A stretch of DNA of 64,000 nucleotides from Spirogloea muscicola (taxonomy: Eukaryota): NCBI GenBank assembly GCA_009602725.1, contig WELB01000008.1:427300-491299 (forward strand), written 5' to 3'. The notes under the pieces are model-generated. The model was not told the origin of the DNA, made no database searches, and saw nothing but the letters and a program-made list of their open reading frames with translations. The position numbers were made by a program, and so were the translations under genes. Positions 9,801-42,100 of the stretch are shown in pieces. The first letter of the stretch is position 1, and every line of letters starts with the position of its first letter.

Positions 9801-11371
9801 CCCGGTGTTGGCCCCGTGCCTGGCTCTCCACCCCAGCAGGGCCCCGGCATGCCTGCAGCTCCTCTGCGTAAGTCCTTCAGGCTTGGGCACATGCATTTCT
9901 CATGCAACAATGTCAATATCTCTGATTGAAGCCATACTTACACTAGCAGGGCTAATGCAGATTGCAGAGTGCTTCTACTTTGTCAGGAGGACCGAGGGAA
10001 GAAGTTCAGTCAGGATACACCGGAGATTGTTATCTTTTATGTGTGTGACAACAAAGAATGACAGTCATATGTGGCTTGTTTCTCAGTGGAAGTAGTGACA
10101 ATCTTGTGTACGATTTGCTCTATATAATTCTCAAGCTTGACCTAGGGTTCTGTGCTTATGCCAGATTCAAAGGCCAAGGTGGGGCTCAAGGGCGTCCAAG
10201 GTGGTGATCCTGTTGCGTTCCTCCTGCTGGAGATTCTCCAGGCTGACAATCTGAGGGCTGCTGATCGAGGAGGTGAGCTCCTCAACTCTGTGCCGTGTTT
10301 GCGGAGTCGTAGTGGGGCTTGATGAGCAGTAAGTTCTCTGACCAACAAGAGGCTTATTTTCTAGCTTGTCTTTGCGTGTCTATGACTAGCCACTGTGGTA
10401 TTTGTCGGGATAAAATGGAAGTATATCAGCCATGTTAAGATCAAGTTGGGTTGCTTTGAGGTCTTTCGAGATGGCCAGTCATCGATCAAACCCTTCTGTC
10501 TACTGTCAGACCCAGTCACATGAGAGTGTATGGATGCTGTGCTCACTGCCAAAATGTGCTGGACTTGTAATGGCCTGGGCAGGCGCGTCGGATCCATATG
10601 TCAAGGGCTCAGTGGACGTCGTCAAGTTCCAGACGTCGATCAAGAAATCCACCCTGACGCCAAGTTGGATGGAGGACTTCCGGGTGCCCATATATCATTG
10701 GAACGAACCAACCGTTTTACGGCTGCGTGTGATGGATTACGACAAGTATTCGGCTGCCGACGAGCTTGGCATTTGCGAGGTGAACTTGAATCGCTTCCGA
10801 GATCAGCAGCGGCACGAGCTGGTGGCAAATCTGCAGGAGGCGCGAACGGGCCGCATCCACATTGCCTTCACCATTCTTGAGAATATGGATGCCCGCCCAG
10901 GTGCGCCATGCTGTTGCAGACATGCTCTGCTGCTTTTACTACTGAAGTGTTAACATATGCTATAGATGTTACTCATGAGACAGTATCTTAATTCTACAAT
11001 AAGTCCTTATCATGATGTCTTTGAAGTGATTTTGGTTGGACACTTAATCAGGGTCCTACCACCTCATAAGCTGAATGGCATGCCATGCATACGCTCGAGT
11101 ACATAGGGTATGTTGTTAATTCTGCTTGCTTGCTCTCCATGGTGCAGATGGCGTGCAGGCCGATGTGCCACTATCCGAGCAGCCCAATGCAATGGCAGGC
11201 GCGCCACCTGACCTGGGCTCTGTGGACCGCGCGATGGCGGGTGCCGAGAGCCGGGGTCTGAAGCGGCGGGTAGTGCGGCTGGGCAACACACCAAGCCCAG
11301 TGTGCCCGGGCATCTCCATTTACACCTGGGACGACGTCACGCTGGGGACAGAGCCCGAGGTTCACAAGTGA
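6859..11371 (+). CDS. N-terminal TM, SMP-like and C2 domain protein (synaptotagmin/NTMC2-like), multi-exon
   Basis: Hydrophobic N-terminal segment; SMP-like exons (DEETVKWLNSALESAWPEFVE, SVNLGSIPP, FPFVDRVSVSFITEP); C2 exons (LLLEILQADNLRAADRG, SDPYVKG..FQTSIKKSTLTPSWMEDF..LRVMDYDKYSAADELG). Confidence 0.8.
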
Positions 11372-12072
11372 CGGACTCGACGGAGTCCCACAAGTCCTCC
11401 ATGATCAGTGCATGTCTTGGGAGGAATCTCACAGCGACATCCTGAGAACAACATACGGCACATATCTAGCACTATGGCCAGCACTTGTTGTTAGTGGTCG
11501 TGCTGTACCACGTATCGTGTAGCCAGTATGTTTGCACCTGGCGCCCCTGATCTAACTCAGTGGAGCAGAGGCTGCCGAGACCGTTGTCAGTGGGCAGCTC
11601 GTTGATTGCGTAAGAGAGGAAAGACGCTTCCAGTAGAGGGCGCTGGCTGTGAGAGGCCAGCCCAGAACAAAGAATCTCAGATTTCGAAGGGACCAGAAGA
11701 ACCGCTAAAGCACACAGTGATTCGAATGACCACGAGGCACGAGTGCTTGAAGGCTCTCGAGGACGCTGGAGTCCCACACATTGTTCCTCTGGATGCGTCA
11801 TTTACTGCCAGGCTGCCGTCTTGCCTCTGCAGCGCGCACAGCACAGAGCGGGGCATCGTGCGCTACTTACTGGAGTGTGGGCTGGGCTGCGAGCAAGCCG
11901 AGACGGACCCACTTGGAAAGGCCGCAGTTTCGCCACAGTCACCATCGCCGAGGCGACTGCGGCACCCCGTGGGATTAGGTCTTTGGGCTGAGAGTGTGCG
12001 CCCTAACTAGGTCGACGTGCAGGACTCCAACTCCCCAGCGAGAGCAGGCCACTCAATCACTGCCCGCCGCCT

Positions 12073-12106
<34 letters not shown>

Positions 12107-12152
12107 TGCCGCCGCCGCCGCCTTTCTCCTTCGCCTTCTGAGCGAGAGGCCG

Positions 12153-15100
12153 ATGGCGTCGCCGCCGTCTCTGGCGGCGTACGCCGAGGAGCGGGGCGTC
12201 CGGTACTTCCTGGTGAGGCCCCGCCGCCGCCCGCGGCCGTGCCGGCGGCCGCCATGGCCCGCCGCTTGCCACCGCTCTCCGCTGCTCCGCCGCGGCGTTA
12301 CTCACGGCGCCTGGCGGCTCCGCAGGTCAGCTTCATGGACCTCTTCGGCGTGCAGCGGTCGAAGCTGGTGCCGGCGCCGGCCATCGGCGGCGTGCAGCGC
12401 GGCGGCGCCGGCTTTGCCGGCTTCGCCACGTACCTCGACATGACGCCGGCGCACCCCGACATGGTGAGCAGCAAGTGGCAGCATTGGCGACGGTGGTGAC
12501 GAGCTTTGCAGCCCAGCAGAGCTTGGGCTCGCCGAATGCAGCTTGGTATGAGTCACCAAAGCTCGGGCAGAAACCTCAGCAAAGTCACGTCACTTTGCAA
12601 TGGACTACGGTTCTTTTGCAGCTATGGTCAGTTCCATGGAGTATGCGAAGCAGCATAGCATGGGCTCGAAGTTTGGTGGAGGCAAGCAGGTGGCTCTTGG
12701 GGCCTGGAGCCTGCAGACCAGGCGATGCTGGTGATCCTCTGTGTTGTGGCAATCACCAAAGCAGTTGATACTGCTGTGCTGCAGTTCGCAATGCCCGACG
12801 CGGACGCCGTCTTCCAGCTGCCCTGGAAGAAGGAGGTCGCGTGGGTGGCTGCCGACCTTGTCATGGACAACAAGCTGGTGGACCAGGCGCCCAGGAACGT
12901 CCTCAAGGCACAGGTGTGCTGCAGAAACGTACAGAACACGATGTCCGCTAGCTGGCTACAGCATCACAGCAGGCTGCCAGACTATACTTGTGCAGCCAAC
13001 GAGGTTGTCCTGGAGCCTTAGCTAACTAACATGCTGTGTACACCAACTTGCCTTTTCTTGGTTGATCCTATTCGTAATCCGTTGATACGGCCCAGTGGTA
13101 TCACTGCAGTGTGTCTGCCCAGCTCTCGCAGCATGCTGATGTCGAAGTTGCAGTTGGAGCCTGATTAGTCACTTGGTTGGCTACTGCATGTTCTATGATC
13201 TCAGATACTGTGGTCTGTCAGATCATAGTCTGCTAAACTTAAACATTAATCCACTAGCAGGTGGCTGCTCTCAAGGACATGGGACTTGAAATGAAGACTG
13301 GCGTGGAATGTGAGTTTTTCTTGCTAAACGGAGCGAATGAAGTGGCGGACACAAAGGATGTCGCTGAGAAGCCTTGCTACGATCAGGTGCAGATATGGTC
13401 ACCAGAGGATGATAGTCAGGGCTGGAACTCATCCAACTCATGACAGCAGCAGCAGTACAAAACAGTACTGAAAATGAAAGCATCCGCCGAGGATCCATTG
13501 CATGTAGCGTACATGTGGCTGCAGAATTGAGATGATTCAGGATGGTTGCTTGCCAGCTGATGCAATTTGCGCGCAACTCGGGTGGTAGGCAGCGCTGATG
13601 AGGCAGTATGAAGTCGTAACAGAGGTCTGTGAGTACATGACCGAGCTTGGTTGGAAGCCTTATCAGATGGATCACGAGGTAACTACTCGATTCGGCTGTG
13701 ACTCCTGGTCGCTTTGACCATGTGCAACTTTATGTCAGCCAAATATTTAGCCTATGCTTACATCATGTATGCCTGACATACTTCTATAACTTGAAAGTGC
13801 AATGACTGCATAGAGCTCAAGAGTTAGTCCCCATGCTGTTTGACTACTGGCACTTAGCCCTCCGAGAACTCCAGAAAATTACTCCCTAGATGCGCAGGAT
13901 GGCAACGGTCAGTTTGAGTTCAATTGGGAGTACAACAACAGCCTGGTTACAGCCGACCGACACACGTTCTTCAAATTCATGATGAAGTCTGTAGCCGAGA
14001 AGCACGGTAATGTGCCTGCAACTTACTCGATCTGCTTGAGCTTGTCCTCCATAGCATGCATTACCTCGGAAGCTGGGCTATTTCGTCTGACTCCGTTTGT
14101 AGATAGTGTATTTGAACGCGAATTGGTATGTCAAGTAAGTGTCTGTAATAGCTGTTGATTGGTCGTGGCATATGCAGTTTCAATGGCACTAATCAGTCTG
14201 CGGGCATTTATCCATGCTTTCTTGCTAGGCTTGAAGGCCACATTCATGCCCAAACCCTTCGAGAACAGGACCGGGAATGGGGCCCATTGCCATATTTCTT
14301 TGTGGAATAATATGGGCACTAATGTTTTTGAAGATGAGCACGGAGAACTGGTAAGGTCCAGGCGACCATTTTGGTGCCGCATTTATTTGCAATTCAGGAG
14401 CTTGAAGCTGGCTTCATGACTCTGAGTGCATGTAAAATATCTCTTATCATGGCGTGCATCAGGGCTTATGTTGCATCGGTGCAATGACTACTCTCTACAC
14501 TGTTTGCAGGGTCTATCTTCTCTAGCCTACAATTTCATTGGGGGTGTTCTAGCAAATGCCAAGGTAAGGACGTTCTTGAGCTTCGACTCGGCTTGCCTGC
14601 TCATGACATCTTACTCAGGGAATGAGGGAGGCACTGGGCTTGTTGCACCTGGGGGATCCATGAACACCAGCAGTCTTAAGTATTACTGCCTGTCTCCTGA
14701 TTTTTGTGTCTCATAATCACACTAGATCGGCGAAATGTGTTGCTGGTGCAGGAGCCTCGCTTATGACTTGGCCAAGTCACAGCTGCTTATGCCGCCACGA
14801 GCTGTGCAGGCTCTGTGCGCTTTTACCAACCCGACTGTGAATAGCTACAAGCGCACAAGTGGAGCCACAACAGCTTCTGGAAGCTCCTGGGCACCTTGTA
14901 CCATCTCGTACACCGGCAACAACCGGACACACATGCTCCGGTACACCATCTTAATTCGATTGCCTCACTGTTTATATGCATACTGTACAGCGTCGCTGAA
15001 TGTTGCTCAGGGATTGAATGTGTATGACACTCACATAGGAGGACAGCTGTGATCAGCTTGGCAAGCGAAGGTTGAAAGGGTCTGGCCTGAACGTGCTTGT

Positions 15101-15980
15101 CAATGTATCAGAATTCCCGACACCGACCGCTTTGAGTTTAGACTGGCCGATGGTGCGGTCAACCCTTATTTGCTCCAAGCTTCTCTTTTAGGTCAGCAAT
15201 TGTCTACTTTGACAAAGCAATGCACGATGTGACCTTATGCCCGTCACTGCAGCCTCAGAGCTTCTGGTGTTGTAGCCTCAGACCAGTGCATTATTGGCAA
15301 ATTTTATATCCAATGAGAAGCTCATTTGCAGGTCAGCAGTTGCAGCATATTCACTTTCCACCTTACGTTGATGATGCTTGACAGCTGCAGGCTTGGAAGG
15401 GATTGAGCAGAAATCAGATCCAGGTCCCCGCGCTGACTGGAATGGTCATGTCCCCCACCCTGAGATGGTAGACCACCTTATGCCTTCATAGAACCTCCTC
15501 TGCGTCGTCAATGATGACAACGCTTTGGCAAGTCAAACACAAGCTTGTGCTCAGGATGGCTTTCTGCTGATGCAGAAGCTTCAAACACTCCCTGACAACC
15601 TCCTTGACGCCCTGCGCGAGCTGAGCTCCTCGGAAGTCCTCAAAAGGGTAAGCTCCTCTTTAACACGCTTCTTTGGTAGACCTGCTCATTTTGTCATGTG
15701 CATGCTGCACCACCCTGCAGTGTATAGACTCCTGATCTGCTTGTGTTGCAGCTCCATGCATTGCAGTGTGAAGTTGCTGAACTAAGAGGGGCTGCCTGCG
15801 ATAACGCTTTAGATTATTGCGCTGCAGGTTAACCAGCTCCTGACACCTTTGCTTTCCACATCCATCCAGAGGCTTGGCGAACAGTTTGTGGAGTCCTATG
15901 TGAAATTGCGCATGCAGCAGTGGCGGAGTTACTCGTCCCAACTCAGCAAGTGGGAGCTGGACAACACTCTGGACTGCTAA
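12153..15980 (+). CDS. glnT: Bacterial GlnT/GmaS-type glutamate-ammonia/amine ligase (type III GS, gamma-glutamylmethylamide synthetase-like), 13 exons
   Basis: Predicted exons: 12153-12212, 12326-12463, 12785-12913, 13261-13386, 13589-13678, 13898-14006, 14229-14350, 14510-14563, 14810-14940, 15112-15191, 15385-15467, 15576-15647, 15870-15980. They join in frame with GT-AG ends. The product contains [96 protein letters not shown] and ends WELDNTLDC*, the GlnT/GmaS signatures. Confidence 0.9.
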
Positions 15981-16199
15981 CATTACTGCAGAGTGCTGTC
16001 TTCGCAGTCAATGTACTTGTTGTCATTGTTACTTCGGCCGCCTCTGTTATTATAATAACCATACTTAATCTCTACTTCTACTCCCTTTGCACAGAGCAGG
16101 CCTGTATATTGTACACAGTGACCAACTTTGAAGTGTCTTCAAGCAGATGCCTGACATCCAGGCCTCGCTTTCATACCAAGCGCACCGCGCATCTCTCTC

Positions 16200-16430
16200 T
16201 TTGGCTCTTTGCCCATTCCTTTTGGGCTGGCCTCTCACAGCCTCGCCCCTTATGAGAGAGCTGCTTCCCTGACAGCCATCGCCTTGATTTGGAAGAGCTA
16301 CCTCCCTACATTCCTTTTGGTCCTTTTGGGGCTGGCTTTTCACAGCCTTCGCCCCCTTTGGCAGAGCCACTTCCTCTTCTGGGCTGGCCTCTCACAGCCA
16401 TTGCCTTAGGTAAGAGCTATGTTTTTCCTG
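16200..16430 (+). repeat. Head-to-tail array of ~50-bp retroelement 3'-tip units
   Basis: Three to four consecutive units of consensus GGGCTGGCyTyTCACAGCCnTyGCCnnnTGGnAGAGC at ~16221, 16328 and 16381, with a partial unit at ~16270. Confidence 0.8.
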
Positions 16431-16624
16431 ACAGGGGGTTCCCAAGAGCGCCCTGTTTGCCTCGCCTGTGGCTCCGTTAATATAGTCAGGAACACCCTTT
16501 GTAAGCACCCGGCTGGTCTTCACAGCCCCCAGTTTCCCCAAAGTTTCCTATAAGCGACCTCAATCTGCTTTCTGCGTCCGGCCGCCAGCCCCGAACGAGG
16601 CAGGAAAGCGTCTGTGTTGAGAGA

Positions 16625-17250
16625 TGGGGAGGCCATGTGTGGCCAAGTACAAGGGCAAGCACATTGACAAATGTGCGTCACCTGCTGCTAAGCTGACCCG
16701 CTCAGTAACCACGAGTCAGCACATAGGGGTCGCAACTGATGCTCGAATACCGGACGAAATTGACAATCTCTTGACTACCAGCTAAGGCTCGGCCAGCTTT
16801 CTGATGCAACGCATGAGCCTGAGCTTGCTGCAGACAAGCTGACACTCGACGATGCAAGAATGACAAGTAGGCTGCCAGCATGCCCATCTGAGCTGGAAGC
16901 ATATCCTCACAAACGAGCATATCCCAAACTCGCAACATTCTCCAGTAAGGTGTGGAAGCGAGGGCCGATGCAGCCGAAAGTGTCGATTGCCGCCGGTAGG
17001 AGGTGGTCGCTGCGGGGGTAGTCAGAGTAGTATCGGAGCTTTCTCTGCTCAGCACCTCCCACTGCGTGGCCAGCAATGTGTGTGGAAGCGGAACTCTTGT
17101 ATGCCTCGGTCACCACCACATCAAGCAAGGCTCGTGGGCCTCTGCCAGGTTGTACACCCACAATGTCCAGGGTGCGACGGTGATGGCGTCCCTGGGAATC
17201 CGTGGTGATGGGCATGACATCCCGAACGAGGGATGCGCCGAACGGCGATC
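16625..17250 (-). mobile_element. Degenerate RLE (PD-D/ExK endonuclease) non-LTR retrotransposon fragment, family A
   Basis: RRTLDIVG...ALLDVVVTEAY...AEQRKLRYY...LLPAAIDTFGCIG, then a frameshift to RRVSACLQQAQAHALHQKAGRAL...YVLTRGY*. This fits the R.D...DV.V...K..KY...P.A.(E/D)T.G..G...LQR pattern of CRE/R2-type RLE domains. Confidence 0.75.
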
Positions 17251-21110: not shown

Positions 21111-24100
21111 TTATGCCTTGGCCGGCTGCTCTAACGTCAGGGAGCTAGCGCCGTTGCCGCCATCATCATTCCCAGCAGCCTCACTGACAATCTTGGCGGA
21201 AGCTGCAGGAGCAGGAGCAGGAGCGCTGCTCTTGACCTCCGCAGGCAGCTTGCCATCGAGCACAGGCTTGCCGTCGAGGATAGGCACATAACGACCCTCC
21301 ACGAAGCCCTGCTCGTTGAGCACACTCACAAAGCGATATTTGACCTGCCAAGAAGGTTGGTATGAGCACCCAGAAAATTGTCAGAAGCGGTGACAAGGAG
21401 CAGCCCAACTGTTGTGTACTTCTCAGCGTCCTATTATGACACACGCTATCACTTGCAAGTGACCCTCCTTGCAGAGAAAGATGGCAAGGGAGAATGTGTC
21501 GGCCTCCTCACCTCTTTGTGCGGCTTCCCGCCGGAGCCGAGGAACGCCTTTGATGAGGAAGCCAGCTTGCCCTCCTGGTACTTTCCCTTGAGGTCCTCTT
21601 GGACGAGAGGCGAGAACTGCTTATCGAGCGACCGGGCGGCACCAAGCCATGCGATGACAATGAACAGCAGGATGACACCAAGGTATGGCGTGGAGTTGGC
21701 CAGTGACCCAAAGCCAAAGATGAGGAACTGCTGGATGAGTGCACCGCCTGACTTGCCCAGCGGATTGCACACCACATCGATAGCAGCCTTGCCCTTGACC
21801 TGCTCGAAGTAGCAGCATCATTGAGCAACAGTGTAATACATGCGAGTATCAAACTACAGCCAACTTCACACCAAGTACTAGGTGGACTCTACCAAGGGTC
21901 AAGTCTCCAACATTTCAAAGGGTCTGCTTGGGCAATGCCAAATCCTCAAACGCCATGCTGATATTATGTCTTACAGAGATGCATGAGATTCAGGCTACCT
22001 TTGTATTCGCACCAGACTGTTGAGTTCAATGCCAGACTTGCTCAAGGACAGATGCCACGAATCTCAGGATGCCCCAAACAATTGCTGAGGCTGCCTTGCT
22101 GTACTCACCTTGGTCTCCTCGTCAAGAGGAATGTAGGCCATCTCCTTGCATGGGTCAAAGAGGCTGTACTTGGCGCTCTTGCTGAAGATGTTCTGGGCGG
22201 CGCCAACGTACACGGCTGCCAGCAGCGGCGTGAGCCCCAGGGACGCCAAGTACGGCGTAAGGGGCGCGGAGAAAAGCACGAGCGAGAAGAAGGCCACGCC
22301 TGTGACGAGTAGCACCGACGGCGTAATCTGTGCTGCCACGCCCCAGCCGAACTTGCGGAAGATGACACGCGAGAGTAGCATCATCGCAAATGTCACGATG
22401 CCCGTGTATGTTGAGAAGTCGCCCATGAATGAGGAGTAATCATTTGGATTTGGGAACTGCATGCAGAGAGCATGAAGCAGGATAGAGAGCGATCATTAGT
22501 ACTTTGCCTGTATTCAATCAAATTGTCTGCCACAGAGGCCTTGCTGGTGCGTAACAGAGTCGGGCAACTCGCTTCTGCTGTTAGGACTTGCTGACCTTTT
22601 AGCAGGCATGCATTACGATTGTGCTTGCATTGCATCGAGAAGGTACATTGAGCTAGCTCTTCAGCTACTTTCCAACCCAATTGCCAGCATTGTGTCAAAG
22701 GCTGATGCCTCTCATAAGTAGTGTCCACTGTCCAACACATCTCAAGGTGTACAAGAGCAAGCCAAGGGCTGAAGAGAGAGGCAGGCAAGCACCTGGGCCT
22801 TGATCTTGCCCTTCCACGTAACCTCCACAAGGTTGATGCTAATGCCATAGGCTACGACGATCGTGGCAAGGTCCCTAATGTACCGCGACCCGAGAAGGAA
22901 CTTGAAGCTCTCCCCCATACTCATCTTCGGCTTGTCCTTCTGCGGAGGGCCAAACAGCAAGGATGCTCAGCTAGAGCAGGTCTGATCCCCTGCATGGACG
23001 TGACGACACAGGCGCTACATCCTGCTGCTCAATTGTAGCTGCATAAGCTTTAGCAACATTGCCACTGCAGCAAGAAGATGCATTAGTGCTGCTTGAAAGT
23101 CATTCAGCCACTTTAAACAACTTGCTGATAGACAGCATTTAATGCTCACCTTCTTCTTCTTCTCGACCTTGGGCAGGTTGGGGTCGTTGACAACATTGGC
23201 AACAACCCACCAGTATATGGCGGCGATAGCAAAGCCGAGCACAACGACAAGGGACATCATGCCCTTGAGCGACATACCCCAGCCGTCGACGCCAGGCCCC
23301 AGCTTGCTGCGTAGCTGAGAGAAATACTTGACAGTTCTTCCCGAGAAGACGAGCGCCACATTGGCGCCAAGGCCGAAGAGCGGGTAGAACTGCTTCGCTT
23401 CGTCCACCGTAACAATCTGCAACAGCAGTACCCTAGGAATCAGACTTGAGCAGACTGAGAAGCAGGTAATACACCACCACTGCCACACTGCAGACTTTAT
23501 TCTGCAGTCATCTGCATTCCAGTGGGCTCGAGGGTTGGCCACTTCAAAAATGGCAAAATTGTGTTGCAGTGCAAATCTGACAATCACTTGGCTTATATGC
23601 CTATCCTCAAGCAGCTTGTACACAGCAGCATTGATAAGTACTGTGCTTGTGAGACTGGAGCTACCCGCTTGTACACAGGGAGAAGTTTAAAAGGTAAGCG
23701 GATGTATGAGCAATGACAAGCTAGCAGTTCCTATATGCATCAACAGACTTGATTGCAAAAAGGACTAATGCATGTCTCTCAGCACCTTGTCAGGGCTGTT
23801 ACGGACAAGAATTTACATTTGTGAAGCACAGCAATATGCAAGAGGCAGTGCGGCCAGGTCTCAAGCAGCACAGCTAGAAGGGCACACCCTCACTGGTGCT
23901 TGTAATTTGAGCAGGCGCAATGGGATCTCCTGAATGAGGAGGGCAAAGACCAGCACCTGGTTGGCAAAGCCCCAGAATAGCACAGAGACGACGACGGAGC
24001 CCCAGAGCTCGGCCATGACGTAGAAGAGGCAGAAGGTCCAGTTGCGGAGGATGGAGATGGGGCCCATGAAGCGCGGCCCGAGCTGCGTGAGCAGGCGCTC

Positions 24101-24584
24101 GGCGAGCGCGGTGGGGTGCAGGACGTGCTGCAGCGGGTACATGAGGAAAGCGAAGGCGCCGAAGAAGGCGATGAAGGGGAAGATGCAGGTGTAGAAGAGC
24201 GCCTCGCGCGACAGCACGTTGGCCAGCTTGGAGTAGACGACCATGAAGGCGACGGCCAGCGGCAGGTTGACCCAGGTCTTGAGGAACGGGATGATCTCGG
24301 CGCCGGAGCCGGGCGCCGTGACCACCAGCACGTCCTTGGTGTCGCGCAGGATGGTGTAGTTGAACAGGATGCAGAAGAACATGAGGCCCAGCGGCACCAC
24401 CTTCTTGACCGTCGTGTACGGGATGCCGAAGATGCTGCCCTGCTGCGGCGCCGCCGGCGTCGTCGCCGTCGCCGCGAATGGCGCCACCAGGCCCTCGCCC
24501 TCCGGCTGCTGCTGCTCCTCATCCCGATCCTGCGGAGCGGCGCCGGCGGCGGCAGCGGCGGCCGAGGCCCGGGGTGCGGCGGCG
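21111..24584 (-). CDS. NTT: Plastidic ATP/ADP transporter (TLC family); start probably in the N-gap
   Basis: PLGLMFFCILFNYTILRDTKD, YVMAELWGSVVVSVLFWGFANQ, EAKQFYPLFGLGANVAL, INLVEVTWK, NIFSKSAKYSLFDPCKEMAYIPLD, KAAIDVVCNPLGKSGG. Confidence 0.95.
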
Positions 24585-24707
24585 NNNNNNNNNNNNNNNN
24601 NNNNNNNNNNNNNNNNNNNNNNNNNNNNNNNNNNNNNNNNNNNNNNNNNNNNNNNNNNNNNNNNNNNNNNNNNNNNNNNNNNNNNNNNNNNNNNNNNNNN
24701 NNNNNNN
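24585..24707. other. Assembly gap (N run)
   Basis: Run of n bases within a GCC-rich 5' region. Confidence 1.
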
Positions 24708-24884
24708 CGGCGGCGGCAGCGGCGGCGGCGGCGGCGGGGGATCGGCTCGCAGCTGGCACGGCGCCGGGGGGGGTGGGGGCTAGCGGCGGCGCCGCTTGGC
24801 AACGGGGGAAAGGCGAGCCGTGCGCATGAAATCGAAAGGTGGCCCAATTTAAGTCAAGCCAACACACTGCTCCGTTCCTGGCAT

Positions 24885-27197: not shown

Positions 27198-29120
27198 CTC
27201 CAGGCGCGCCGAGGAGGGCTCGACGCCAAGCTTCAGCTCCTGGCAGACTACGCCACGATGTCCCGCCAGGATCCACGACCGCCATTCCCGAGTGCAATGG
27301 ACGCAGCAGTGGCCGTCGAGGCGCTGGTGGCGGCAGCCGTCGGCAGCGCCGCAGCGGCAGCCTCAATGCAGGCGCGTGGTGCCGTCGAGCTCGCGGTCCG
27401 GCTGCTGGGCCCCTCGGAGGACGACAGCCGCCTGCTCGACGGGCTGGCGGCGCTCGTCGCCGCCTGCGCCGGCACCACGGCGGCCACGGCTGCCGCGCTC
27501 AAGGTGTTCGAGTTCGACGGAGTGGCAGTGACGGTGAGACGCCATGCTGAGCGCTCTACCTCAGGCAGAGGAGCTCAGCAGGGTTTTGTCATTCTTAGCT
27601 CTGAGCACCAGCCCAGACCGCTAGAGCACGGCCGCTGACGCGTCCGCATCTACAATTGTTGCCCGTTGCCGCTGCCGCAGGTCCTGGAGATGCCTTACCA
27701 TGATGCAGGCCTGGGATGGAAGGTCTGGGGTGCTGCGCTGCTGCTGGCGGCGCAGCTGCGGGCGGCGCCGGAAGCGGTGCGCGGGCTCCGCGTTCTGGAG
27801 CTCGGTGCTGGCTGCGGCCTCTGCGGGCTGCTGGCTGCTCAGCTGGGCGCTGTTGAGGTGGTACTCACCGACTGCGTCCCTGCCATCCTGGACAACCTGG
27901 CTGCTGCAGTGCACCTCCTCCCAGCCAGCACGCACTTTGATGCCAGAAGCAATGCCAAGGGGCCGACTGCTTCTGGCGCGGATGAATGGTCTTGGTCATG
28001 GGGCCCAGTCGAGGCACGGGCAGCGATCCATGTTGTTACTGAGAATAGGGGCGGTGGCGATGACGGCCACCTTGCTGCCAGCAGCAGCTGCGTCAAGGTG
28101 CGATTCCTGGAGTGGATTGAGGACAATGTGAGCACCAGCCTGGGGCCTGATGCCACTCCACTGCATGCAGCACTGGTGCGCTCATCTGATTAGCGCCCTG
28201 CTTCCATTACAGAGCTACAAAGCCCTTATCTTTCTCTCAAGCACAGCTACTAAGGAAATCCAATAAGAACTTGGAAGTAAATCTTGAAGGCTTGGATCAT
28301 GATTTTTCACGTACTATAGAGAAGACATTAAATGACCTTGTCAGTAGACAAAGCCTAAGCCAAAGTTTTATGGATTCCTGCGTAGCGATCTTCAGATGGA
28401 GACCTTCAGCCTGACAAAGATTGTGTATGGCAGGCGGGGATGGCTAAGTTCGGTAGTTGCCCGCGCCTGGCGCCAGAGGATGTCTATGATGTCATCATTG
28501 GCAGCGACCTCATCTACGAGGCCGAGCTTGTGGAGCCCCTCCTGGTGCGCTAGCTGCCGCCGGAGTAGCAGGATGTGAATTACCGTAAGGTTGCTATCAT
28601 CAGATTTCTTACCATGTCTTGCTGTTAGCTAAGCTATGGCAATCATCGCCTGCCTGCATGCCCACTGTGGTGCCTGCAGGGAGTTATCCGGCGGCGCCTC
28701 GCTTGGCCCAACGGCGTGTGTTACGTAGTGCAAGCCGTGCGCTCCCTTGAGCTCCTGGACCTGCTCACTGGCCTGGCACCCGCACACAAGCTCACAGTTA
28801 CAGTGGCACATGAGGTGGCGGAGGTGGCAGCTGCGCTGCTCACCGCCTCAGAGGCTCAGCGCTACGACTGCTTGGACGATCTTGAGCCCCACCCAACCTG
28901 CTCCTTGTGCGAGACTGCAGCAGGCTGCGAGGACTTGCACACCAGCCAGGCAGGCCAGTGTCAGGCGCTGTTGCTGCTGAGCGAGCCCACCGTGCGCCCG
29001 CCAGGCTATTACGTCGGCGGCTACGTCCGGCTCACCCTTGTGCATCTTCAGGTTCGGCTAGCACTCAAGCCATCGCCACATACTGAGCTTGTCCTACTTA
29101 CGCAGTCTAACATTCAGTAG
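27198..29120 (+). CDS. Class I SAM-dependent methyltransferase (METTL21/Methyltransf_16-like), multi-exon; 5' exons may extend to ~26520
   Basis: GLGWKVWGAALLLA...LRVLELGAGCGLCGL...VVLTD, VRFLEW, and DVIIGSDLIYE in a downstream exon. Confidence 0.75.
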
Positions 29121-37849: not shown

Positions 37850-39069
37850 TTAAAGCCCGACACTCGAGACCTGGAAAAGCGCGGGTGTGTTTTCCTGGAT
37901 GTAGCCAAAGCTGAACTTGGCCCCCGGCGCAAGTGGGAAGACGTAGCTTGGCAACATACACAGCGTGCCAGATTGTGTGATCCCCCACGACCCTGTGGGG
38001 CTGAAGCCAGTGCAGGTAATGCCGATCGACACAATCGGCTGCGCACCCAAGTTTGTGACTGTCACCTCGTAATTGGTGAAGGTGCCTCCATCGGAGGCGC
38101 CCCAGCTGCCAGAAGTAGTCGTCATAACGCTCACCTGGGCATTGCCTGTCTCACCGAGGCCCGCCGCTGCGCAGCACACAGCCAGAGGACGTCAGGCTCT
38201 GGCCTTCCAGCAGCACAGACGCCATGGCTCCATGGCCGCTTGGGTTAGCTTCGTCTTGGGGTTAGCTTAATGCGCTTACCAGGCGAGCCGGGGGCAGGCG
38301 GGGCGCCAGGGGGCACGGGGACGGGAGGCGGCGGCGACGGCGGCGGCGGCGCTGCACAGGGGAGCACCAGCAGCTTCTGCTGCTTCTTCGCCGTCTTGGG
38401 CTGCTCCTCCTCCTCCATGGCCGCCCTCGCCGCCACCACCTCCGCTGGGACGAGGACTCGGGGCTGCCTTGCCATCTCCTCTCGTGTCATCGGCCACCAT
38501 GGCACTTGCTCCTGTCCACCTGGCGACGCCGCTGCCGGCGGCTCTGCCAGGAGGCGCCGGTGGTGATGGCCGACGCCCGGCGGATGGTGGCCCACGCGGT
38601 GGCCCACGCCAGGCGGGTGGTGGCCGCCCTTCTTCGGCGGGCTGCGCAGCGACGGGCAGTGCGCCGGGTTCTTGCAGTTGTGCGGCTTCTTGCCGACTGC
38701 ACACGACGTTGCCACCACAAGCTTGTTGTTACGACGTTGGACGGCCTGTAACTGTTACTGTTACTGTTACTGTCACCGTAACAGATACTGCAAATTCTAA
38801 CGGCACCTGCAGGGAATCATTCAGCTGCTCAGCAGTTTGGTAGCACCAACTTGGGGATTGGCAAGGTGTGTAAGTCAGAGTTAGCAGCATTGCCATGGCA
38901 TGCTGAGCAGTTGGGCGAGTCATAGCGTCTCCATGGGACCATGATGGTCGCAAGGAGCGCACCAGGTGGAGTTCCGGAGGCTGATGATGGAGGTGGCAGC
39001 AGAGGAGGTGGAGAGGTCTGCAGTTCCCGTGGTGGCGGTGGTGGATGCGACTGAATTGGGGAAGGCGAA

Positions 39070-39100
<31 letters not shown>

Positions 39101-42100
39101 TGGACGGCGTCTGCGGAGGCGGTGATGGCGACGGCAAAGGCGGCGGAGGTGGTGGTGGGCGTGTGACAAGTGGAGCTGGTGGCGGGGGCGGTGGTGGCTG
39201 GAGCGTTGTCTTGATGGATGGCGAGCTCGGAGGCGGCGGCGGCTGTGACGTTCCAGCATTGGGCGGCGGCGGAGGTGGCGGAGGAGGCCGTGGCTGTGAA
39301 GGAGGCGGCGGCAGGAGCAGTGGAGCTGGTGACAGCTGTGTCAGCGGTGGCGGCGGCGGCGGGGAGGACGCAGAGAGGTCGGGTGGAGAAGGTGGGCCAC
39401 ACGGCGGGAATGGAGGTGGCGGGGAGAATGGCGGTGGTGACGGCGATGGAGGCGGAGGCGGAGGCGACGGTGGCGACGGCGGCGGAAGTGGACCAGATCC
39501 CGGCGGCGGCGAAGGCGGCGGCGACGGTGGCGGCGGCGGGGGGTTGGCAGGCTGTATCGTACTGGGCAGCGTGAAGTTGGCCGGCGACGACGGCACTGCG
39601 CCATCGTTGATCTTGGCCAGCGGGCCCACGATCACCGTGTTGAGGTACGTTGACGGCTCGCACTGCATGAAATTCTGGCGGCTCTGCACAAACCCGTCCT
39701 TAGCGTCTGGGCCCCCAATGATGGATCCGATAAGTACGTTCGGATTCGGGCCCTGCATGCAAAAAACGAGCACCATCAGAATCTGTCTTGATGGTCCCGA
39801 AACAGTGCACTTGACACCCACGCAGTGCAAATCTTTAGTATGTGTAGGTCACGATGGAGGTCTGCAAGCAGGTATAATTGTTTGCCTTGCTGTAGTAGAA
39901 ATTGTTGAAGCCGTTGTTGCAGGAGAACTCCTCAGGGTCCTGGAAGATGCTCACAGTTGAGGCACCGCGGTGGTGGACCATGGTGGGGTAGTTGGAACTG
40001 AATCCAACCATGTAGCTAAGCTTGAGCGGGTTGTTCCCAAGGACGTAATCCACCTGATGACAAACACACACACGCTTTATTCATCATGGATGGAGCAGTA
40101 GCCTTGAGCACCAGCATTCTGTCCGTCAAGGCACGTCTTGAATGATGCAGATGGAGAAGACGCACATAGAGAAGATGGTCACCTGCGTCTTCGCAAAAGC
40201 AAGAATTTGGCCCGGTGAAAAGCTTCGGGTACCACACGTCAGGCTTTGACCCGCAGCTGCCAGGTAGTCGGCATAGATTGTAATGAGCATTGTGGCTGAG
40301 CCGGCATACTGCAAGTTGCTCCACTCCCGAACATAGATCAGCCCCGCTGCAGCAGCCATTGTCAGAGACAAGTCAAGAGATGAAAATTTCCTCATGCATA
40401 TGAATGAGTCTAAGGCCGGCTCACAGCCGGCACACAATATGCCCTTGTCCATGGACAACTTCTCCTACTAGCAGGACTGAGCTGCACATAGTTACTACAA
40501 GCTACCCTTCTCTGCAGCGCAGCTCATGATGAACAGCTCAGTTGACTATAACAAAGTCTGTTCGAGGGTTACCAGGCGTGCGTTGAACTTGCTGCCCAGT
40601 TGTAGCAGCCTGCATGACTGCGCAGACAAAGTCCTCGGCACGCAACCTGTACGTAGCTAAAGTGCTTTGAAATGCTGGAGCAGCCTTGTTCTGCAGCAAT
40701 ATCTGCAGCCACCAGTCCAGGGCCGAATCTGGCCTTGTGAGATCATTAGATTGATTGACAGCCCCCTCCATAGTACCTAGCTGATCTGCGCCATATATTT
40801 GCTGCACAGTGATGAAGCTTTAGCTAACATCCTTGATGCTGCAGACGACCTTTGTGAGGAGGATCTGAGCACCGGCCATTTTGTCATCCCAAGAGAACTC
40901 CACTTTGCTCATTGTTGTACCACCAAAGCTGGCGGCATTGTCCATGCAGTACTGGAGGTACGTGTCCTTGCCGGTCGCCCACCACAGCCAAGCAGCGGCC
41001 CACAGTAGCTCATCCTGGTCAAAGGACAAGCTAACATTGAGCGTATGTATGCTGCAAGGCTGGCGCCCATGCTTGCACTTGACGTCAATCATGCCTTATC
41101 AATGAAAGTTTGTTTGACATCCTAGGAACAAGAGCGCAAGCATGCATACCTTATATCCTGAAAACGAATTGTAGAAGCCAGAGACGACACTGATGGACTG
41201 TGCATAGTCTCCGCGGAATGAATCACCGAAGGTGAAGAGCTGCTCCCAGCCAAAAGTCATTAGGACAATCAGTTTCGGCACCCCTGCAAGAGGTCCACGA
41301 ATCTCTGCTGCGTGATTGAAGATGGCCATTCTGCAGGATCAGTCTTATTCCGCCGCCGGCAAAAGCAAAAGGCAGAAGGCAAAAGGCAAAAGGCTAATTT
41401 CCAGCTAAGCAGTTTACCTGCTGAGCGTGGGCAGATAAGGTGCTTGCATACACTGGATCCGAAGACTGGAAAGCTATAGAGGCAGCGGCCATTGCTGCAG
41501 CTGTCTCCGCCGCAAGCTCTGTGCCAGCACTTGTTTGGTTGATCTGGTACGGAGTCCTGGGGGTCTTCATCTGCTCTGGTCGAGCCCAGCAGCTGTGATC
41601 GCTCTGTCCTTCACCAACCTGCACAAGTTGCAGCACTGGTGAGTAAGACTTACTTGACGCAGTTTACATGGCGTCAGGTATGGCGCGGCAGAGAGTCAGA
41701 TTCAAGATTTGGACTGTAGCGTGGTGAAAGGCGGGGGTGTACCTCCCCCCATAGTGTTGTGGGTGCTGAGTGGCACTTGAGGAAGTAGTCAGTGCCCCAC
41801 CTAATGGCATCGAGCGCATACTGTGCATGGAAGCTAGTAGTCAGGTATCACATTGTAGCTCTGTAGCGGCTGCAGTTATGGCCCTTGCATACAGAATTTG
41901 TCAGCTGAAAGGAGGTACCGTGCATTGATGAACAGACCTGGTCGACATCAATCAAATTCTAATGTGCAAACGACTATTTGCTGTTGCCATTGGGGGGCTG
42001 TCAAAATGCTCACGTCTAGTTGCCCTGCTTTTTGGAGCTGTTCTCTGTACTCGATGACATTGTAGGCAAGTGTCGTCATGGAGAAAGCCATGGGGAAGTT

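Follow-up and report, generated by a model that had tools for sequence, protein, structure and literature searches.

A GmaS-type glutamate-amine ligase gene shared by Spirogloea, bryophytes and lycophytes

We analysed a stretch of 64,000 nucleotides from Spirogloea muscicola (GenBank assembly GCA_009602725.1, contig WELB01000008.1, positions 427,300 to 491,299 of the forward strand; hereafter the window, in which all coordinates are given) that carries a gene for a glutamate-amine ligase of the GlnT/GmaS type. GmaS is used as a marker of bacterial methylamine use (PMC7948447), and microalgae are said not to metabolise methylamines as a rule (PMC7574528). The plant-clade proteins described here are labelled ‘glutamine synthetase’ or ‘uncharacterized’ in databases. 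A first-pass annotation had taken the gene for a bacterial ligase domesticated in an alga. We find instead that it has been inherited vertically in Zygnematophyceae, liverworts, mosses and lycophytes, and that the streptophyte gain is older and wider than that annotation held.

Gene structure and transcripts

The gene model was built by joining exons, by profile matches of the exons and by a spliced alignment of a Sphagnum protein (Table 1). All 12 introns have GT..AG ends and are 108-347 nucleotides (nt) long, and the 1305-nt coding sequence specifies 434 amino acids plus a stop codon. The 13-exon layout proposed at first pass stands; the length of about 445 amino acids given with it does not. 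The Sphagnum alignment, made onto the window without prior coordinates, recovered the same 12 introns exactly. A profile scan covered 12 exon pieces (exon 8, with 18 amino acids, was too short), of which 11 had the GlnT/GmaS model TIGR03105 as best match, in profile order; exon 1 gave no match. In the frame of the gene there is no in-frame Met upstream of 12153, which agrees with the first-pass statement that no transit peptide is obvious. None of the 17 plant-clade models listed has an N-terminal extension, their first conserved strand beginning at residue 17-35, from which we infer a cytosolic location for the plant-clade enzymes.

GC content at the third codon position is 0.91-0.98 in exons 1-3 and drops to 0.33-0.76 in the exons that follow. 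A run of GCC triplets (~12065-12122) lies just upstream of the start codon, and repeat-like sequence of high depth is found on both sides of the gene (11500-11800 and 16100-16800).

Transcript evidence comes from a single run (X1), whose class as RNA was guessed by the tool and is not on record. Its contigs span joints across introns 3, 5, 6, 8, 9, 10, 11 and 12, and at introns 4 and 7 their loose ends match the exon that follows, so that 10 of the 12 junctions are backed in all. Introns 1 and 2 lie outside its coverage, which says nothing either way on their splicing; depth is zero in the intron-only bins of 12140-14620. The species is represented in the protein database by three near-identical full copies and one partial copy. 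One of the full copies, the public EukProt model P0001 (441 amino acids), has the same span as the window gene, with another acceptor at intron 8 and two amino acids of exon 11 dropped. At intron 8, contigs skip 246 nt at depth 40 and, as a minor form, 188 nt at depth 7; intron 10 measures 193 nt. Based on the RNA joints and homology, P0001 was rejected in favour of the 434-amino-acid model. Use of the minor acceptor in intron 8 (14564-14809) would lengthen the spliced product by 58 nt, with a frameshift. Some contigs (records 2 and 7) match the window without differences at sites where the other copies differ, and the window copy is therefore probably expressed. The partial copy (P0002, 155 amino acids) runs into intron 4 and then stops, and is either a truncated duplicate or a mis-model.

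Table 1 Features of the ligase gene and neighbouring open reading frames (ORFs) in the window. GS, glutamine synthetase.
Feature	Position	Strand	Remarks
GmaS/GlnT-type glutamate-amine ligase gene	12153..15980	+	13 exons, 434 amino acids
Exon 1	12153..12212	+	Start codon, no transit peptide; intron 1 12213-12325, phase 0; no RNA cover
Exon 2	12326..12463	+	Lys33 (GmaS Lys30'), Ala51 (at GS Asp50'); intron 2 12464-12784, phase 0; no RNA cover
Exon 3	12785..12913	+	Intron 3 12914-13260, phase 0; 347-nt RNA joint
Exon 4	13261..13386	+	Metal ligands Glu125, Glu127; pocket Tyr149; intron 4 13387-13588, phase 0; loose contig end matches exon 5
Exon 5	13589..13678	+	Catalytic Asp179 (GmaS Asp177), Glu181; intron 5 13679-13897, phase 0; RNA joint
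Exon 6	13898..14006	+	Catalytic Glu188 (GmaS Glu186), Asn190, Trp191, Tyr193; intron 6 14007-14228, phase 1; RNA joint
Exon 7	14229..14350	+	Gly233, His237, His239, Ser241; intron 7 14351-14509, phase 0; loose contig end matches next exon
Exon 8	14510..14563	+	Intron 8 14564-14809, phase 0, minor alternative acceptor; RNA joint
Exon 9	14810..14940	+	Gate loop Arg291, Trp303 (at GS Glu flap), catalytic Arg315; intron 9 14941-15111, phase 2; RNA joint
Exon 10	15112..15191	+	Glu328, Arg330; intron 10 15192-15384, phase 1; RNA joint
Exon 11	15385..15467	+	Plant-clade loop Trp365, Gly367, His368, Pro370 at the place of the proteobacterial Ile-x-Met-Tyr loop; intron 11 15468-15575, phase 0; RNA joint
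Exon 12	15576..15647	+	Intron 12 15648-15869, phase 0; RNA joint
Exon 13	15870..15980	+	Carries stop codon
Neighbour ORF, C2 domain	10414-10950		
Neighbour ORF, TLC ATP/ADP transporter	23015-24850		
Neighbour ORF, lysine methyltransferase	27639-28190		
Neighbour ORF, GH9 fragment	38829-39845		

Family membership and active site

The GlnT/GmaS identity proposed at first pass is borne out by profile scores and by grouping with GmaS apart from type I GS (GSI). P0001 passed TIGR03105 with 600.9 bits versus a cut-off of 469.6 and failed the cut-offs for GSI GlnA (TIGR00653, 263 versus 429 bits), GSII GlnII (NF041605, 20.6 versus 500 bits) and PuuA-type gamma-glutamylputrescine synthetase (NF045547, 219 versus 650 bits); the other plant-clade proteins scanned (12 of 12) also passed TIGR03105. 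By sequence, the closest solved structures are the GmaS entry 7cql (513 bits) and 9qur (289 bits), with GSI at ~190, and the predicted monomer structure of homeologue P0121 (predicted local distance difference test score 92.7) superimposes on 7cqn with a template-modelling (TM) score of 0.96 and a root mean square deviation of 1.4. Type III GS (GlnN) is a ~730-amino-acid enzyme compared with the 434 amino acids found here, and the 729-amino-acid chains 3o6x and 7u6o, which we take to be GSIII, gave 22-25 bits. The NodGS fusion carries an N-terminal amidohydrolase domain, which is absent from the window protein; in P0001 the GS fold begins by residue 8, and an upstream exon is still compatible with the RNA. 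The plant clade lies among core GmaS within TIGR03105, with 58-62% identity to bacterial proteins, and the window protein is 58% identical to the GmaS of Dinoroseobacter shibae.

Twenty-three functional residues named for Rhodovulum GmaS (RhGmaS) in PMC7948447 were mapped through the 7cql alignment; all 23 are kept in the window protein and in all 19 plant-clade rows, of which three are Spirogloea copies and six, lacking a species name, were called plant by tree position only. Catalytic Arg312, Asp177 and Glu186 of RhGmaS correspond to Arg315, Asp179 and Glu188, and the methylamine pocket described in the same paper (Tyr147, Gln175, Asp177, Glu179, Glu186, Asn188 and Lys30') is kept at seven of seven positions, again in 19/19 rows. 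Ala51 and Trp303 occupy the places of the ammonium-handling Asp50' and the flap Glu of true glutamine synthetases; in all seven GSI controls the column of Ala51 holds Asp and the flap position of Trp303 is acidic. Thirteen alignment columns are specific to plants, one of them the start Met, an alignment artefact.

Distribution, age and origin

Named orthologues occur in Mesotaenium (presumably the genus behind the model id Mesen1), Calypogeia, Marchantia (two species), Sphagnum (six species named), Ceratodon, Physcomitrium, Selaginella and Diphasiastrum, with a single orthologous locus seen in Physcomitrium (LOC112278114; protein XP_024366990) and in Marchantia (MARPO_0140s0025). Among the top 120 of 8000 scored matches, a top list and not a direct test of absence, no fern, seed plant, chlorophyte, red alga or glaucophyte was named; seed plants would have lost the gene. 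In a search of 50% representatives no row showed the plant loop motif, and its rows are unnamed and so silent on range. All clusters obtained from the Atlas were of bacterial type III, which is likewise silent on plant members. A motif scan of metagenomes gave 59 loci, of which seven are true homologues and 52 had no tblastn match.

In all trees the plant rows are monophyletic, with support of 100 in FastTree, 99 in the quick version (the 66-row tree) and 100/100 in the two careful trees. Embryophytes are supported at 100/98-99, and mosses and lycophytes are recovered within the plant clade. At a Sphagnum-like metagenome locus (L033), 12 of 12 introns have the same positions and phases as in the window gene, and partial loci share all the introns they cover (10/10 in L056, 3/3 in L013 and 2/2 in L019); the probability of such sharing by chance is <1e-22. 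Because the plants form one clade and the window gene shares 12/12 introns with the Sphagnum-like locus, the gene was likely acquired and filled with introns once, before the split of Zygnematophyceae and land plants. The domestication is thus not specific to the alga, as had been supposed. Moss orthologues have GC-AG introns in places where the window has GT-AG (introns 4 and 12 of L033, intron 10 of L013).

A source in contaminating bacterial DNA, or a pseudogene, might be suspected from the ~60% identity to bacterial proteins, but it has next to no probability: 12 spliceosomal introns are common to moss, spliced contigs exist, the frame is intact, the neighbours are plant-type and the same species holds three full copies. 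The spliced contigs and shared introns led us to rule it out, and the nuclear integration asserted at first pass holds. So does the bacterial affinity, since the streptophyte clade nests within bacterial GmaS and not in a broad native eukaryotic GS clade. More weight attaches to the possibility, which we consider doubtful, that the donor was a cyanobacterium (free-living, or the ancestor of the plastid) and that the gene is of one group with cyanobacterial GmaS, which works without MgsABC. The 365-372 loop is nearer to the cyanobacterial than to the proteobacterial loop, four columns are shared with cyanobacteria and two with other bacteria, and cyanobacterial copies also lack mgsABC. Approximately unbiased (AU) tests reject neither a clade of plants plus cyanobacteria (p 0.68, where the constrained tree scored higher, and 0.27 in a second tree) nor proteobacterial monophyly (p 0.34). 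In trees that include long branches the plant clade falls outside the core group of bacteria, and the tree without them, with nine cyanobacterial rows, nests the plants with proteobacterial rows (87/98). Against a cyanobacterial source there are, besides that nesting, the low number of cyanobacterial genomes with a match (26 of 401), the lack of any chlorophyte, red alga or glaucophyte among the top 120 matches, and the missing transit peptide; a plastid origin would require many losses. As the ranges are patchy, lateral gain is more economical than a plastid origin, although not proven.

Three divergent GmaS-like proteins (P0367, P0368 and P0378) fall outside the plant clade; P0367 has an N-terminal extension of ~70 residues and may reflect a separate eukaryotic gain.

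At the nearest 80 GTDB loci, an MgsA-like neighbour occurs in 70 and an MgsC-like neighbour in 74, and most near bacterial relatives are therefore true N-methylglutamate-pathway enzymes. Around cyanobacterial GmaS-like genes (L091, L092, L103, L140-L169), a PRK07581 hydrolase lies within 1.5 kb at 15 of 30 loci and a desaturase-like gene at 14 of 30, and a stand-alone MgsC-type match was found in none of the four cyanobacterial genomes examined. Queries for these desaturase-like and PRK07581 partners gave nothing in the window or in five moss loci. Of 26 neighbour ORFs scanned in the window, five have domains, belonging to four families (C2, TLC ATP/ADP transporter, lysine methyltransferase and GH9), as would be expected in a plant nuclear genome; outside the gene itself, the window shares no neighbours with the moss loci L033/L040. 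Elsewhere in the family, P0372 combines a PRK05665-like amidotransferase and a GmaS-type ligase in one fusion protein.

Predicted function and known systems

Judging from the active site and by analogy with RhGmaS, the plant-clade enzymes would capture methylamine or ethylamine, a reading to which we assign a probability of about 0.65. In the Rhodovulum enzyme the Michaelis constant (Km) is 27 uM for methylamine, 58 uM for ethylamine and 8.7 mM for ammonium (PMC7948447). If the mechanism of that enzyme applies (PMC7948447), ATP binding would close the gate loop, Arg315 would assist glutamyl-phosphate formation, Asp179 would deprotonate the amine and Glu188 would resolve the intermediate; the product would be gamma-glutamylmethylamide (N5-methylglutamine) or theanine. 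Most likely, the enzyme would then serve in the trapping, and storage or detoxification, of small alkylamines in plants of wet surfaces.

Several observations weigh against this reading. Plant-specific changes at or near the gate loop (293-294, 301-302), beside His237 (236, 238) and in the 365-372 loop could shift the substrate, and RhGmaS turns over ammonium with the same catalytic constant (kcat) (PMC7948447). Queries of the mgsABC/mgdABCD type gave no match in the 64-kb window, as the first-pass annotation had held, or in the five moss loci. The RNA comes from one guessed-RNA run that mixes three near-identical copies, and a common clade with cyanobacteria survives the AU tests. With the same origin, the enzyme could have shifted to another amine (ethanolamine, a polyamine fragment or a larger alkyl- or arylamine) and make a specialised gamma-glutamylamide; the clustering of the plant-specific columns in the gate loop and the 365-372 loop, the lack of mgs/mgd partners nearby and the promiscuity of GmaS for amines (PMC7948447) speak for such a shift, but all seven pocket residues are unchanged throughout the plant clade and we regard it as unlikely. 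Still less probable is an additional low-affinity ammonium glutamine synthetase of the cytosol. Ammonium turnover by RhGmaS and the public name ‘glutamine synthetase’ of the Marchantia orthologue would suit it, but the Asp50' and Glu-flap residues of GS are missing, RhGmaS has a Km for ammonium ~300-fold higher than its Km for methylamine (PMC7948447), and GSII enzymes are already present in these plants (PMC9310647). Capture of methylamine or ethylamine thus remains our preferred reading. Building on it, and only as a tentative proposal that we would not expect to hold, zygnematophyte algae, bryophytes and lycophytes may run a methylamine-nitrogen pathway of their own, lost in seed plants, in which GmaS traps methylamine as N5-methylglutamine and a postulated plant demethylation step then frees glutamine, much as has been proposed for the oxygenase-hydrolase cassette of cyanobacteria. 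If so, mosses such as Sphagnum would be direct methylamine sinks and natural makers of theanine-type amides.

That plants from algae to lycophytes have kept a GmaS whose active site is intact implies that early land plants had an amine metabolism so far unrecognised. Physcomitrium and Marchantia are knockout-friendly models, each with one locus seen, which makes the question directly testable. The transfer itself is one of many ancient gains: 115 bacterial gains have been counted for the ancestor of streptophytes and 90 for that of embryophytes (PMC12513842). Because such gains are common in streptophytes, the surprise is limited, and the interest lies in the predicted plant amine metabolism.

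In the literature, we found no plant GmaS by title or by the start of abstracts, a search that does not reach into bulk tables of horizontal gene transfer. The gene ids of the plant clade were not found in the accessible text of Feng 2024 or in the part of its supplements covered, and 1,809 transferred families are reported in Dong 2025; bulk lists of this sort may well contain the family without its having been noticed. KnGLNA of Klebsormidium, the NodGS fusion and a moss GS described by Yue et al. 2012 resemble the present gene in having a GSI fold, a bacterial affinity and a place in plant nuclei. According to Yue et al. 2012, the moss gene is nearest to Runella, Dyadobacter and Meiothermus, genera not named among the matches here, and its GI number was not matched to the accessions here; given these Bacteroidetes and Meiothermus relatives, it is probably another gene. 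PMC9667741 also lists a moss GS, with a donor of this kind. KnGLNA lacks the motifs of the plant GmaS clade and is an unrelated protein (PMC9310647).

Plant GSII (GLN1/GS1/GS2 and the bacterially derived GSIIb/GLN2) shares the chemistry of the GS superfamily but belongs to another subfamily (21 bits versus a cut-off of 500) of ammonium enzymes; GSIIb is itself an early plant gain from bacteria (PMC2978018; PMC9310647). The cyanobacterial GmaS-like ligase of the desaturase-like and PRK07581 cassette is of the same family, also without MgsABC and with a similar 365-372 loop, but it forms a separate clade and its partner genes are absent from the window and the moss loci. The nearest known system is bacterial GmaS/GlnT (TIGR03105; Protein Data Bank 7cql and 7cqn from Rhodovulum, 9qur from Methylovorus; Dinoroseobacter shibae). 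The plant protein passes the family cut-off, its predicted model has the same fold (TM 0.96), and the catalytic, ATP, Mg, glutamate and amine-pocket residues are all present together with the Ala and Trp signature. It differs in being encoded by a eukaryotic nuclear gene with 12 introns, without an mgsABC/mgd operon context at the locus, and in its own gate-loop and 365-372 loop sequences; its activity is predicted. What is new here is a streptophyte GmaS clade without its known pathway partners nearby, in a family already known from bacteria.

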